Shown here one piece after another: positions 1 to 6,103 of a stretch of DNA of 64,000 nt. The notes under the pieces were generated by a model. The model made no database searches, was not told the DNA's origin, and worked only from the letters and a program-made list of their open reading frames with translations. The DNA is taken from the NCBI GenBank assembly GCA_900768875.1, contig CAAGEP010000003.1, forward strand, positions 474,433-538,432, read 5' to 3'. The number at the start of each line of letters is the position of its first letter. The stretch's first letter is position 1. Both the position numbers and the translations under genes were made by a program. Origin of the DNA: Alphaproteobacteria bacterium. GTDB lineage: Bacteria; Pseudomonadota; Alphaproteobacteria; CAAGCB01; CAG-977.

Positions 1-1012
1 CTCCGCCGAAGGAGCCGCCGCGATTTTAATGAACGCAAAAACGGGCGAAATCGTTTCCATGGTATCGTTGCCCGACTTTGATCCGAACAACTTGAAAAGC
101 GCCGCAAAAAGCCAAATATTCAACGCGGCGACTCTGGGCGTTTATGAAGTCGGATCGGTAATGAAAATGTTCAACACCGCCATCGGATTGGAAACCAAAA
201 AAATCAAAGTAACAGACACGATTGACGCGTCGCATCCCGTCGTTTTGGCGAACTACACCATTCAAGACGTGCCTAAACTGCGCCGCGAGCTCAGCGTTCC
301 GGAAATCATGATTCATTCGTCCAATATCGGATCGGCGAAAATCGCTTTGGCGGTCGGGGCGGAAAAGCAGCGTGAATATTTGCGGAAATTCGGATTTTTC
401 ACCGCTCCTCAAATCGAATTGCCCGAAAAGGGACGACCGCTGTACCCGTCGACATGGCGCGACGTCAGCACGGCAACCATCGGTTACGGTTACGGATTGT
501 CCGTATCGCCTCTGCATGTCGTCGCGGCGGCGGCGGCGGTTGTAAACGGCGGCATTTACCACACACCGACTTTGCTGTCCCATCGCTTCAATCAAAAAAA
601 TATCGGCCACCGCGTCATTTCTGACAAGACATCCAAAACAATGCGCGCTATTATGCGCGAAGTCGTCATCAAAGGTTCGGGCCGGCGTGCGAACGTCGCG
701 GGATTCGAGGTCGGCGGCAAAACGGGTTCCGCGCGCAAACTGGTCAACGGCAAATATGTCGAAGGTTCTTTGCGCACGTCGTTTTTGTCGGCTTTCCCCA
801 TGGACGACCCGCAGTATGTTTTAATGGTTATGCTTGATTCGCCAAAAAAAATCAAAGAAACATACTACTTGAACACTGCGGCGTGGAACGCCGTGCCGAC
901 GGCTGAACAGATTATCACGACGGTTGCGCCGCAACTGGGAATCATGCCTCGTCCGTTTGATTCCAAACGCGAAGCGCCGTACGTCAAAGCGGCATTGGAA
1001 TCGCAGGATTGA
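1..1012 (+). CDS. ftsI: Peptidoglycan D,D-transpeptidase FtsI (PBP3), 3' part. The gene starts upstream of the window.
   Basis: In-frame ORF running from the window edge. Transpeptidase motifs are present (SxN as HSSN, and KTGSA). It lies immediately upstream of murE in dcw order. Confidence 0.85.
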   Translation, partial: SAEGAAAILMNAKTGEIVSMVSLPDFDPNNLKSAAKSQIFNAATLGVYEVGSVMKMFNTAIGLETKKIKVTDTIDASHPVVLANYTIQDVPKLRRELSVPEIMIHSSNIGSAKIALAVGAEKQREYLRKFGFFTAPQIELPEKGRPLYPSTWRDVSTATIGYGYGLSVSPLHVVAAAAAVVNGGIYHTPTLLSHRFNQKNIGHRVISDKTSKTMRAIMREVVIKGSGRRANVAGFEVGGKTGSARKLVNGKYVEGSLRTSFLSAFPMDDPQYVLMVMLDSPKKIKETYYLNTAAWNAVPTAEQIITTVAPQLGIMPRPFDSKREAPYVKAALESQD

Positions 1013-1039
1013 CACACTCCTGCGGCAAGGAGAAAAAAC

Positions 1040-3877
1040 GTGCAACTGACAGACCTTTTACGCAAAGCCAACATTCCTTATACGGGCGCGGATTGCGTCA
1101 TTGACGGACTCACCGCCGATTCCAGAAAAGTCGGCAAAAACTTTTTGTTCGCCGCCCTGCCCGGAGTCAAAGCCGACGGAACGGCTTTCCTGCAGGATGC
1201 AAAGGAAGCGGGCGCGGTTGCCGCTTTGGTTCCCGAATCGGCATCGGATTTGCCCGACAACGGCTTGATTTACGTCACGGTCGCCGACGCGCGCAAAGCT
1301 TTGGCTGTCATCGCCGCCGCGTTTTACGGCAAACAGCCCGAAACGGCGGTTTGCGTCACGGGCACGAACGGCAAAACGTCCACGGCGAATTTCTGCCGCC
1401 AAATTTGGGACTTTTTGGGCAAAAAAGGCGCAAGCGTCGGCACTTTGGGCGTTTTGACGGCTGAATTCGCGACATACGGCTCGCTGACCACGCCCGATTC
1501 GGTCACGCTTCATTCCGAACTGAAAGATTTGGCGGACAAAGGCTACAATCATCTGGCGTTCGAAGCGTCTTCGCACGGCATCGAACAGCACCGCATCGAC
1601 GGCATCGCCATTGCCGCGGCGGGCTTTACGAACATCACGCGCGACCATTTGGACTATCACAAAACAATGGAAAACTATCTGGCGGCGAAGCTGGGCTTGT
1701 TCGACCGCCCGCTGTCAACGAAAACCGTTGTTTTGAACGCTGACATTCCCGAATATGACCATATCGCCGACTATTGCCGGCAGCGCGGATTGAAAATCCT
1801 TGATTACGGCAAAAAAGCCAAAGCTTTGCGGCTGATTTCCGCCCGCCACGAAACCAACGGGCAACACTTGGAACTGGAAATTCTGGGCAAACCGTATTCG
1901 ATTCACCTGCCTTTGGCGGGAACGTTCCAAGCCATGAACGCTTTGTGCGCTTTGGGATTGGTTCTGGCGACGGGCGAAGACGCCGATTCTTGCGTCAAAG
2001 CGCTGGAAACGCTGAAAGGCGCGCCGGGACGGCTGGAACACGTTGCCGACCGCAAAAACGGTGCGGCGGTGTATGTCGATTACGCGCACACGCCCGACGC
2101 TTTGGAAACCGTTTTGAACGCTTTGCGCCCGCACACAAAGAACCGCCTGTGCGTCGTGTTCGGCTGCGGCGGCGACCGCGACCCCGGAAAGCGTCCTCAA
2201 ATGGGCGCGATTTGCAATGCTTTGGCGGATGTGGTTTACGTCACGGACGACAACCCCCGTTCCGAAGAACCGGCGATTATCCGCGCCGCGATTTTGCCCG
2301 CCTGCCCCAAAGGCATCAACGTCGGCAACCGCGCTTTGGCAATCGAGGAAGCCGTCGAACAGCTGGAAGCGGGCGATATTCTGGTCGTCGCGGGCAAAGG
2401 ACACGAAACGGGACAGCTGATAAAGGGCGTCATGCATCCTTTTGACGACCGCGAGGAAGTCCGCAAAGCCGTCGCTTTGGCGGATACGCCGCTATGGACG
2501 GCGGAAGCCGTGGCGCACGCGACAAACGGGCGCGCGGGCAGCGACTTTGCGATAACGGGCGTTTCGATTGATTCGCGCACCGTCAAGGCGGGCGATTTGT
2601 ACATCGCTTTAATCGGCGAACGGCTGGACGGACACGCTTTCGCGGCGCAAGCTTTGGAAAAAGGCGCGGCGGGCGTTCTGGTGTCGAAACTGCCCGAAAA
2701 CATTCCTTTGGAACAAGTGATTCTGGTGTCCGACACGACCAAAGCGTTAAACGATTTGGCTGTCGCCGCGCGTTCCAGAACATCGGCGAAAATCATCGGC
2801 GTTACAGGCAGTTCCGGCAAAACCAGCACCAAGGAAATGCTGAAAATCGCGTTGTCTTCGGTCGGACGGACTCACACGACCACGGGCAATCTGAACAACA
2901 CCGTCGGCTTGCCTTTGACGTTGGCGCGCATGCCCGAAAAAACGGATTTCGCCGTGATTGAAATGGGCATCAATCACGCGGGTGAAATGGCGGAACTGAC
3001 GGCGCTGACCCGTCCCGACATCGCCGTTATCACCATGATCGGCACGGCGCACCACGAATTTTTCAAAACCCCCGACGACACCGCCCTTGCCAAAGCCGAA
3101 ATTTTCGAAGGCATGACCGATAAGGGAATCGTGTTTTTGAACGCCGACAACCCGCAATTCGAGCTGTTGCAAAAAGAAGCCAAAAAAGCGGGCATCGAGG
3201 ACATCCGCACGTTCGGCACGCGCGCCGAAAACAACGTCGGGCTGATTTACTGCGCCGAAACGGCTGACGAAACGCTTGTCACCGCCCGCGTCGAACCCGC
3301 GCGCTATTCCTACACTCTGCACATGCCGGGGAAACATCAAGTCATGAACAGCCTTGCGGTCGTGGGTGTTTTGGACGCTTTGAACGTCGACATGGCTTCG
3401 GCTTTGCAAAGTTTGGGGCGGCTGTACCCGACGGCGGGACGCGGCAAGCGTTACGTCCTGCCCTGCGCGGACGGCGAATTCACGCTGATAGACGACGCGT
3501 ACAACGCCAACCCCGAATCCATGGCGGCGGGACTGGAAGTCCTCGGCACGCTTGCCCCCGAAAAGGACGGTCGCCGCATTGCCGTTTTGGGCGATATGCT
3601 GGAACTGGGCGACGAATCCGAAAGCCTGCATCTGGGATTGAAAAAAAGCATTGAAGACAATCACATCGACCTTGTGTTCGCGGCGGGCATCGAAACGGGC
3701 AAGCTGTTTGACAATCTGCCCCCCGAAAATCAAGGCGCAAAAGCCTTGACTTCCGCGGAATTGGCGGATACCGTCGCCCAAGCCGTCCGCCCCGGCGACG
3801 TCGTTTTCGTCAAAGGATCGTTCGGCAGCAAAATGACGCTGATTGTCAAAAAATTGAAAAACTTGAACAACGGATAA
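1040..3877 (+). CDS. murE-murF: In-frame fusion of MurE (UDP-MurNAc-tripeptide synthetase, meso-DAP-adding) and MurF (UDP-MurNAc-pentapeptide synthetase). The protein is 945 aa.
   Basis: A single ORF with no stop. The N-terminal ~480 aa are MurE-like (MQLTDLLRKANIPYTGADCVIDGLTADSRKV, ending GKGHETGQLIKGVMHPFDDREEV). These continue directly into a MurF-like N-terminus (LWTAEAVAHATNGRAGSDFAITGVSIDSRTV) that runs to the stop. Confidence 0.85.
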   Translation: MQLTDLLRKANIPYTGADCVIDGLTADSRKVGKNFLFAALPGVKADGTAFLQDAKEAGAVAALVPESASDLPDNGLIYVTVADARKALAVIAAAFYGKQPETAVCVTGTNGKTSTANFCRQIWDFLGKKGASVGTLGVLTAEFATYGSLTTPDSVTLHSELKDLADKGYNHLAFEASSHGIEQHRIDGIAIAAAGFTNITRDHLDYHKTMENYLAAKLGLFDRPLSTKTVVLNADIPEYDHIADYCRQRGLKILDYGKKAKALRLISARHETNGQHLELEILGKPYSIHLPLAGTFQAMNALCALGLVLATGEDADSCVKALETLKGAPGRLEHVADRKNGAAVYVDYAHTPDALETVLNALRPHTKNRLCVVFGCGGDRDPGKRPQMGAICNALADVVYVTDDNPRSEEPAIIRAAILPACPKGINVGNRALAIEEAVEQLEAGDILVVAGKGHETGQLIKGVMHPFDDREEVRKAVALADTPLWTAEAVAHATNGRAGSDFAITGVSIDSRTVKAGDLYIALIGERLDGHAFAAQALEKGAAGVLVSKLPENIPLEQVILVSDTTKALNDLAVAARSRTSAKIIGVTGSSGKTSTKEMLKIALSSVGRTHTTTGNLNNTVGLPLTLARMPEKTDFAVIEMGINHAGEMAELTALTRPDIAVITMIGTAHHEFFKTPDDTALAKAEIFEGMTDKGIVFLNADNPQFELLQKEAKKAGIEDIRTFGTRAENNVGLIYCAETADETLVTARVEPARYSYTLHMPGKHQVMNSLAVVGVLDALNVDMASALQSLGRLYPTAGRGKRYVLPCADGEFTLIDDAYNANPESMAAGLEVLGTLAPEKDGRRIAVLGDMLELGDESESLHLGLKKSIEDNHIDLVFAAGIETGKLFDNLPPENQGAKALTSAELADTVAQAVRPGDVVFVKGSFGSKMTLIVKKLKNLNNG

Positions 3878-3883
3878 TTCGTT

Positions 3884-4969
3884 ATGCTTTACAACCTGCT
3901 TTATCCCCTGTCGTCGCAGTATTCGTTCCTGAACATCTTTAAATACCTGACGTTCAGAACGGGCGGCGCGATTTTCACGGCTTTGATTGTGTGCTTCATC
4001 ATCGGTCCGACGCTGATTCATTGGCTGAAAGACAAACAGCATTGCTGTCAGCCGATTCGCTCTGACGGTCCCGAAACCCACTTGAAAAAGCAGGGAACGC
4101 CGACCATGGGCGGGCTGATGATTCTGGCGTCGCTGACCGTTTCGACCGTGTTGTGGGCGGATTGGAAAAGCGCGTATGTCTGGCTGGCTTTGGGATTGAC
4201 GCTGTGTTTCGGCGTCATCGGTTTCGCGGACGATTATCTGAAAGTGTCGCGTAAAAGCTCGGGCGGCATGCGCGGAAAGTTAAAGCTGGTCTGCGAATTC
4301 GCGGTTGCGGGCTTTGTCGCATGGTACATCACGAAAATCACGGTCACCCCGACGGCGACGACTTTGACGTTTCCGTTCTTTAAAAACTGGGCTGTCAACC
4401 TGTGCTGGGCATATTTGCCGTTTGCGATGTTCGTCATCGTGGGATCCGCCAACGCCGTCAATCTGACCGACGGACTGGACGGATTGGCGACCGTGCCCGT
4501 GATGATTGTTTCCGCCGTGTTCATGATTATCAGCTATGTTGCGGGACATGCGGCTTTTGCGGCGTATCTGCAGCTGCCTTATATCGCAGGATCGGGCGAA
4601 TTGTCCGTCTTTTGCGGCGCGCTTATCGGCGCGGGCATGGGATTTTTGTGGTTTAACGCGCCCCCTGCCAAAATCTTTATGGGCGACACGGGATCGCTGG
4701 CGCTGGGCGGCGCATTGGGCGCGCTGAGCGTCGCCACGAAGCACGAAATCGTTTTGGCGATTGCGGGCGGACTGTTTGTCGCAGAAACCCTGTCAGTCAT
4801 CATCCAAGTTCTGGCATATAAGACGACTCATCACCGTGTTTTCAAAATGGCGCCCTTGCACCATCATTTTGAAAAGCTGGGCTGGTCGGAATTGACGGTC
4901 GTCGTCCGTTTTTGGATTGTCGCCATGATTTTGGGCTTGATAGCGTTGTCAACTTTAAAGATTCGGTAA
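3884..4969 (+). CDS. mraY: Phospho-N-acetylmuramoyl-pentapeptide transferase MraY.
   Basis: 361 aa polytopic membrane protein with the typical MraY N-terminus and motifs. dcw position. Confidence 0.9.
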   Translation: MLYNLLYPLSSQYSFLNIFKYLTFRTGGAIFTALIVCFIIGPTLIHWLKDKQHCCQPIRSDGPETHLKKQGTPTMGGLMILASLTVSTVLWADWKSAYVWLALGLTLCFGVIGFADDYLKVSRKSSGGMRGKLKLVCEFAVAGFVAWYITKITVTPTATTLTFPFFKNWAVNLCWAYLPFAMFVIVGSANAVNLTDGLDGLATVPVMIVSAVFMIISYVAGHAAFAAYLQLPYIAGSGELSVFCGALIGAGMGFLWFNAPPAKIFMGDTGSLALGGALGALSVATKHEIVLAIAGGLFVAETLSVIIQVLAYKTTHHRVFKMAPLHHHFEKLGWSELTVVVRFWIVAMILGLIALSTLKIR

Positions 4970-4972
4970 AGC

Positions 4973-6103
4973 ATGAAAACAGCGATAGCCAGAACGGACA
5001 ACAGCGTTTTGGGGCGGTGGTGGTGGACCATTGACCGCCCTTTGCTGGCTATGCTGTTTGTTTTGTTCGGCATCGGCATCGTGCTGACTTTTTCGGCCAC
5101 ACCCGCGATTGCAAAACATTTGAGGCTGGATATTTACTTCCTTATCCGGCATCAAGTCGTTTTCATGGGCTTGTCGGCACTTTTGATGATAGGCATTTCA
5201 ATCCAGTCTCCGAAAACAATCCGCCTTATCAGTCTGGCGACAATGGCGGCAATGCTGGTTTGTCTGGTTTTGGTGCTTGTCCACGGCACGCAAATCAAAG
5301 GCGCGTCGCGCTGGATTCGCATTTTCGGCGTGTCGCTGCAGCCTTCGGAATTCGCCAAGCCCGCCTTTGCCGTCGTCGCGGCATGGCTGATTTCTTTGGG
5401 CAAAGCCAACCCTCACATCAAAGGCACGCTTTGGACGGCGGGGCTTTACCTGATACTGGTCGGACTGCTGATTAAACAGCCCGATTTCGGCATGGTGCTG
5501 ACGGTCAGCGTGATTTTCGGAATCGAATTGTTTTTAAGCGGTCTGCCGATGTCGTGGATTTCCGCGCTGATACTGATTGGCGGGATAGGTTCTACTTCGG
5601 CTTATTTCCTGCTTCCCCACGTTCAAGCGCGCATTGATCGTTTTTTAAATCCGGAATCGGGGGATACGTTCCAAGTCCGCACTGCCTTTGAAGCGATTAA
5701 AAACGGCGGGCTGTTCGGCACGGGACCGGGGGAAGGAACGGTTAAAAACATCCTGCCCGACGCGCATACGGATTTCGTGCTGGCGGTCGCGGCGGAAGAA
5801 TTCGGGTTAATCGTAACCCTGTTTGTCGTCGGCATTTTTGCGGCGATTGTTTACCGCGGCTTTCTGTTGATTTTGACCAAAGACAAAAATCTGTTCACTT
5901 TGCTGGCGGTGTCGGGATTGCTCGCGCAGTTCGGCATGCAGGCGCTGGTCAATATGGCGTCAACGCTGAGCTTGATTCCCACCAAAGGCATGACTTTGCC
6001 GTTCGTTTCGTACGGCGGGTCTTCTTTGCTGTCGCTGGGGTTTGCGATGGGCATGGTTTTGGGGCTGACGCGCAGCACGAATACGGGAAAGGATACACCA
6101 TGA
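4973..6103 (+). CDS. ftsW: Cell division SEDS-family peptidoglycan glycosyltransferase FtsW.
   Basis: 376 aa SEDS-like membrane protein. It starts 3 nt after the mraY stop, so there is no murD between them. Confidence 0.85.
   Translation: MKTAIARTDNSVLGRWWWTIDRPLLAMLFVLFGIGIVLTFSATPAIAKHLRLDIYFLIRHQVVFMGLSALLMIGISIQSPKTIRLISLATMAAMLVCLVLVLVHGTQIKGASRWIRIFGVSLQPSEFAKPAFAVVAAWLISLGKANPHIKGTLWTAGLYLILVGLLIKQPDFGMVLTVSVIFGIELFLSGLPMSWISALILIGGIGSTSAYFLLPHVQARIDRFLNPESGDTFQVRTAFEAIKNGGLFGTGPGEGTVKNILPDAHTDFVLAVAAEEFGLIVTLFVVGIFAAIVYRGFLLILTKDKNLFTLLAVSGLLAQFGMQALVNMASTLSLIPTKGMTLPFVSYGGSSLLSLGFAMGMVLGLTRSTNTGKDTP

Follow-up and report, generated by a model that had tools for sequence, protein, structure and literature searches.

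A conserved, linker-less murE-murF gene fusion in the dcw cluster of an alphaproteobacterium

The window examined here, a stretch of 64,000 nucleotides from an alphaproteobacterial genome (assembly GCA_900768875.1, contig CAAGEP010000003.1, positions 474,433 to 538,432 of the forward strand), carries a division and cell wall (dcw) cluster in which the genes follow the order ftsI-murEF-mraY-ftsW-murG-murC-murB-ddl-ftsQ-ftsA-ftsZ. The gene written here as murEF is a single open reading frame (ORF) on the forward strand (1040..3877), which begins with GTG and encodes 945 amino acids followed by a stop codon. A Shine-Dalgarno-like AAGGAG, read from the sequence, is located 7 nt 5′ of the start codon (1027..1032, forward strand). 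The Pfam domains Mur_ligase, Mur_ligase_M, and Mur_ligase_C are each found in two copies in the encoded protein. An ORF of 945 codons that matches two complete enzymes lies well outside what chance would produce. A preliminary description of this DNA had proposed that murE and murF are fused in frame and that the product consists of two consecutive Mur ligase units. The doubled Pfam triplet and the MurE and MurF family matches bear out the second proposal, while the single ORF, the independent assemblies, the clade-wide junction, and the intact motifs described below bear out the first.

MurE enzymes are characterized by a three-domain fold, an ATP P-loop of the form GxxGKT/S, a conserved lysine in the AKxxLF motif, and a DNPR motif tied to specificity for meso-diaminopimelate (meso-DAP). 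The N-terminal module of the fused protein (amino acids [aa] 1 to 478; 1040..2473, forward strand) was assigned as UDP-N-acetylmuramoyl (UDP-MurNAc)-L-Ala-D-Glu:meso-DAP ligase from NCBIfam models, Protein Data Bank (PDB) chains, motifs, and Foldseek comparisons. It scores 727 bits against NF001124 (MurE; NCBIfam cut-off, 476) over aa 14 to 480 and 554.7 bits against TIGR01085 (MurE; cut-off, 257.3), and a sequence search aligns MurE chains of the PDB to aa 18 to 478. The P-loop GTNGKTS is found at aa 108, AKLGLF at aa 216, DNPR at aa 404, and GKGHE at aa 452. In an AlphaFold2 (AF2) model of the protein, this half matches solved MurE structures with a Foldseek TMt of about 0.8. The module, which passes the family cut-off over its full length and has both the fold and the motifs, belongs to the MurE family.

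The C-terminal module (aa 484 to 945; 2489..3877, forward strand) was assigned as UDP-MurNAc-tripeptide:D-Ala-D-Ala ligase, or MurF, from NCBIfam models, an alignment to PDB entry 1gg4, motifs, and Foldseek comparisons. It begins at the residues PLWT and keeps the N-terminal "cap" segment. Its score against TIGR01143 (MurF) is 509.4 bits over aa 510 to 939 (cut-off, 288.6), and it passes NF010693 (MurF) narrowly, with 554.3 bits over aa 482 to 940 (NCBIfam cut-off, 544). Escherichia coli MurF (1gg4) aligns, from its own residue 13, to aa 495 to 938. The P-loop GSSGKTS is located at aa 590 and the YNANP motif at aa 821, and this half of the AF2 model matches Acinetobacter baumannii MurF with a Foldseek TMt of 0.83 to 0.87. 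Membership in the MurF family is given by the cut-off, the three-domain fold, the P-loop, and an N-terminal domain that is complete, cap included. The AF2 model of the full-length protein has a mean predicted local distance difference test (pLDDT) score of 93.8 and a predicted template modeling (pTM) score of 0.86.

The P-loops, AKxxLF, DNPR, and YNANP are invariant in an alignment of 114 sequences of the fused family, an observation that bears on whether one of the halves could be a catalytically dead scaffold, with an active stand-alone copy elsewhere in the genome. Ligase-inactive Mur-ligase-like proteins do exist, such as the plastid MurE-like protein PAP11, and our view is confined to 64 kb of the genome. 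However, the motifs are present as well as invariant, each half scores above a curated equivalog or subfamily cut-off, the window holds no further murE or murF paralogue apart from murC, and the substitutions among close relatives (see below) have the pattern of purifying selection. A dead half is, in our judgment, highly improbable.

The two modules meet at A479-L-A-D-T483 (2474..2488, forward strand), with neither a linker nor a stop codon, as judged from the sequence, from 70 loci with separate genes, from the spacing within the clade, and from the AF2 model. The junction region (nt about 2450 to 2530) reads ...HPFDDREEVRKAVA-LAD-TPLWTAEAVAHATNG... without an in-frame stop, the MurE tail ending in DDREEVRKAVA; the peptide stretch that spans the junction is ...KAVALADTPLWTAEAV.... 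Only about 4 residues separate the recognizable MurE tail from the PLWT head of MurF in the same frame, and MurF is not encoded at this place in either of the remaining frames. In the AF2 model the junction is ordered, with the C-terminal helix of MurE (aa 470 to 481), a short loop, and a MurF helix (aa 488 to 494) predicted at a pLDDT of about 95. Because both ends are intact in one frame, the single-nucleotide indel near nt 2480 that the preliminary description had entertained is excluded; an indel would have destroyed one of the halves. In the classification of Mur chimeras of Shirakawa et al. (2023, PMC10214165), the protein is a linker-less MurE-MurF chimera, in which the MurE C terminus directly abuts the MurF N terminus.

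To place the junction among relatives, loci were taken from a scan of genome contigs, which yielded relatives of 58% identity or less among the matches listed. Of the 79 classifiable alphaproteobacterial and outgroup loci among these matches, 9 are fused and 70 are separate, in agreement with the earlier statement that murE and murF are usually separate genes in alphaproteobacteria. In the unfused loci, MurE ends 28 to 41 residues past GKGHE and MurF begins with M-x(1-5)-LWT; when the window is aligned to the 70 of them, its junction sits where they carry the MurE stop and the MurF start codons, and replaces both. The unfused alphaproteobacteria (e.g., L044, Phaeospirillum L020, and Skermanella L019) are the closest to each half of the window protein by sequence, with up to 59% identity for MurE and up to 49% for MurF among the matches listed. 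They share with it the length of the MurE tail and the MurF N terminus, but have two genes that overlap or are separated by a stop codon, whereas the window gene has lost that stop and start. At 12 unfused loci, the two genes share one reading frame, and only a stop codon plus a few codons (1 to 5) lie between them. Such loci include L006 to L012, L014, L016, L024, and L026, in each of which the junction lies at about 5380 to 5460.

The prevalence of separate genes (70 of the 79 loci) lends some initial plausibility to a sequencing or assembly artefact, in which the genes are truly separate and a base error near nt 2480 removed a stop codon or shifted the frame; at the 12 loci with genes one stop apart, a single substitution could mimic a fusion. 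In the window, however, the intact MurE tail and MurF head in one frame leave no room for an indel, and the junction of about 5 codons holds no Met or other start for MurF, so that a false fusion would require two or more errors. The junction is also identical in independent assemblies. A 98% identical protein (P0001) is present on 6 contigs, and two independent metagenome assemblies from ENA (L081 and L082) were compared with the window gene over its 945 codons. There is no indel, and the differences comprise 58 synonymous and 14 nonsynonymous codons; around the junction (codons 440 to 520), all 3 differences are synonymous. This pattern is the signature of a translated frame under selection. 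No 1-nt difference that would split the genes was found at the junction of these relatives. Given that more than 70 diverged relatives also keep the junction, we regard an artefact as extremely unlikely.

A search for MurE-MurF fusions in other genomes was positive: the best 120 database homologues, 924 to 1,202 aa in length, are all fused, and several clusters of fused homologues each occur on many contigs. The nearer homologues share the junction ...KAxxxAD-xPLWT.... To examine how the fused proteins are related, a rough neighbor-joining tree of concatenated MurE and MurF parts (Kimura distances, n = 196, no support values) was built from the 120 fused database hits and the adjacent-gene pairs of 76 species-representative genome loci, a sample enriched for fused genes. 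On this tree, the window protein belongs to a clade of uncultured alphaproteobacteria that has 74 members, all of them fused, and in which identity declines to about 45%. The length of the junction is fixed in this clade, since the spacing from GKGHE to LW is 33 to 34 aa in 68 of 71 members; the same spacing ranges from 32 to 275 residues in the other fused lineages.

The translation start of the fused gene could be refined by comparison with the same relatives. The ftsI gene ends in TGA (1010-1012), in the same frame as the murEF GTG at 1040, and the gap between the two codons is 27 nt (window 1007..1042). In the 98% identical relative L081 (5996..6040), the gene caller took an ATG that overlaps the ftsI stop, which gives a protein of 956 aa. 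This ATG is absent from the window, and the GTG and AAGGAG are common to both; GAAGGAGAAAC...GTG is likewise found in L081 and L082. Because the shared signals favor it, GTG 1040 is more likely to be the true start than the ATG called in L081.

Taken together, these observations lead us to propose that the window carries a genuine, evolutionarily fixed murE-murF gene fusion that encodes one bifunctional ligase, a reading to which we assign a probability of roughly 0.92. The two genes are normally neighbors in the dcw cluster, and the fusion would have arisen through loss of the MurE stop and MurF start codons, with no linker left and the whole MurF N terminus kept. Translation from the single start at GTG 1040, preceded by AAGGAG, would produce a polypeptide of roughly 100 kDa with six Mur-ligase domains. 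Its N-terminal half would add meso-diaminopimelate to UDP-MurNAc-L-Ala-D-Glu, and its C-terminal half would add D-Ala-D-Ala to the resulting tripeptide to give UDP-MurNAc-pentapeptide, which would then be used by MraY, the product of the next gene. That both activities reside in one protein is suggested by homology, by the conserved motifs, and by analogy with the chimera of Bordetella pertussis. Due to the single-polypeptide architecture, the two consecutive enzymes would be made in a fixed 1:1 ratio and would always remain close together.

Several points weigh against this proposal or limit how far it extends. The homologue list is biased, since a query that is itself fused places fused proteins at the top, and fusion was judged on assembled contigs. 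Substrate channeling of the tripeptide between the two halves is a hypothesis only, unproven even for the Bordetella enzyme. In addition, MurF might also, or even mainly, be made separately from an internal start at the junction. A search at this place for an in-frame start codon (ATG, GTG, or TTG) preceded by a ribosome-binding site returned just one candidate, a TTG (L480, nt 2477-2479) directly ahead of the MurF N terminus, with GAGGAA upstream of it at 2453-2458. The distance between the two is 18 nt, however, which is outside the usual 5 to 10 nt. The TTG is not conserved: residue 480 is E or K in most members of the clade, and no conserved Met precedes PLWT. The sole ATG in the vicinity (2491-2493) is in another frame. 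Separate production of MurF from within the gene is consequently an improbable complement or alternative to a single bifunctional product.

Fusion of murE and murF appears to be recurrent and easily reached. On the neighbor-joining tree, at least 21 changes between the fused and unfused states are needed, a crude figure in view of the missing support values and the fused-enriched sample. We suggest that this recurrence follows from the arrangement of the in-frame unfused loci, because the loss of one stop codon would join murE and murF there. The window gene adds a further independent instance of the fusion that yields the commonest Mur chimera, and, with many relatives one stop codon away, such fusions would arise cheaply.

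The fusion also has a consequence for annotation. Six fused homologues of ~940 aa (P0013, P0021, P0028, P0031, P0074, and P0097) carry the NCBI name of MurE only, UDP-N-acetylmuramoyl-L-alanyl-D-glutamate--2,6-diaminopimelate ligase, which makes the MurF half invisible in text annotation. At JGI, some relatives already bear the label "MurE/MurF fusion protein," and a dedicated NCBI model exists (NF008896/PRK11929, "bifunctional MurE/MurF"). We recommend that the gene be named bifunctional MurE/MurF rather than MurE alone, and that it receive no frameshift flag.

Downstream of the fused gene, mraY (3884..4969) is directly followed by ftsW (4973..6103). The usual place of murD in the dcw cluster is between these two genes. 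No murD was found there or elsewhere in the 64-kb window, where a BLAST search with Skermanella MurD matched murEF alone, and only at the level of a paralogue. The gap is common to all sampled members of the fused clade (including L081 to L085, L002, and L005), down to 44% identity; murD is in place in other fused lineages (L001, L004, L013, and L017) and in the unfused sister group (L012 and L016). A scan of the window with Rfam at the gathering threshold identified one tRNA (34418..34492, reverse strand) and nothing at the junction.

Chimeras of MurE and MurF are the commonest class of Mur chimera, making up 64% of the total, and 96% of them are found in Proteobacteria, with examples from alpha-, beta-, gamma-, and deltaproteobacteria and both with and without linkers (Shirakawa et al. 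2023, PMC10214165). The chimera of B. pertussis has been studied (Laddomada et al. 2019, PMC6420597; PMC10214165). Its structure (PDB 8f5d) is elongated and head to tail, each half is reported to be functional, and the MurE C terminus covers a hydrophobic patch of MurF in place of the deleted cap (PMC10214165). The window protein resembles it in the order MurE then MurF, in being one polypeptide of six domains with no long linker, and in the position of its gene in the dcw cluster; 8f5d is its top PDB match both by sequence (E = 1e−120) and by fold.

The two proteins nevertheless differ in several respects. Identity between them is only about 33 to 40%, and the window protein scores 888.1 bits against NF008896, below the cut-off of 1023, and so does not belong to the Bordetella type that the model describes. 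The Bordetella protein lacks ~22 residues of the MurF N terminus, the cap, which the window protein keeps. Because the betaproteobacterial type (L056) lies outside the clade of the window protein on the rough tree, the fusion in the window appears to have arisen independently of it. The relative orientation of the halves may differ as well. An AF2 model of the MurE C-terminal domain and the MurF N-terminal domain (pLDDT, 93.3; pTM, 0.85) aligns with 8f5d by Foldseek over 265 columns at a root mean square deviation of 13.7 Å (TMq, 0.55). MurE-only structures match 158 columns at 1.6 Å, and the TM-score of 0.55 for 8f5d is no better than theirs. Since the two-domain model does not superpose on 8f5d, the predicted orientation of MurE relative to MurF differs from that of the Bordetella chimera, a lead to be read with the flexibility of Mur ligases in mind. 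The capless, rigid head-to-tail interface of the Bordetella type is, in these models, not that predicted for the window protein.

Other alphaproteobacterial chimeras, such as those from Pseudovibrio, Stappia, Amorphus, and Insolitispirillum, are represented among the homologues (P0069, P0081, P0083, P0084, and P0094). They come from the same class of bacteria, have the same partners in the same order, and are known to carry linkers that differ in size (PMC10214165). The shortest of these linkers comprise a few residues and the longest about 250, and many have a high content of Pro, Ala, and Glu; in contrast, the junction in the window clade is minimal, constant, and linker-less. On the tree, these chimeras sit elsewhere, beside unfused relatives. 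Among the homologues, P0083, P0089, P0091, P0096, P0103, P0105, and P0119 (1,078 to 1,202 aa) have inserts of roughly 130 to 250 Pro/Ala/Glu-rich residues between the enzymes and match the Pseudovibrio/Stappia type of PMC10214165; P0089 additionally has a precomputed match to PF04613.

These differences raise the tentative and, at present, rather doubtful idea that the clade of the window protein holds a structurally distinct chimera, which is seamless, retains the cap, has an interface unlike that of Bordetella, and perhaps reached fixation along with the loss of murD from the dcw cluster. If this were the case, the lineage would have a reorganized cytoplasmic assembly of Mur ligases rather than a mere repeat of a known fusion. 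The cap-retaining junction could in any event serve as a natural comparison to the capless chimera of Bordetella for hypotheses on the Mur complex and on channeling. As a predicted bifunctional MurE/MurF, the window protein is a real, conserved, and independently arisen member of the already well-described MurE-MurF fusions.

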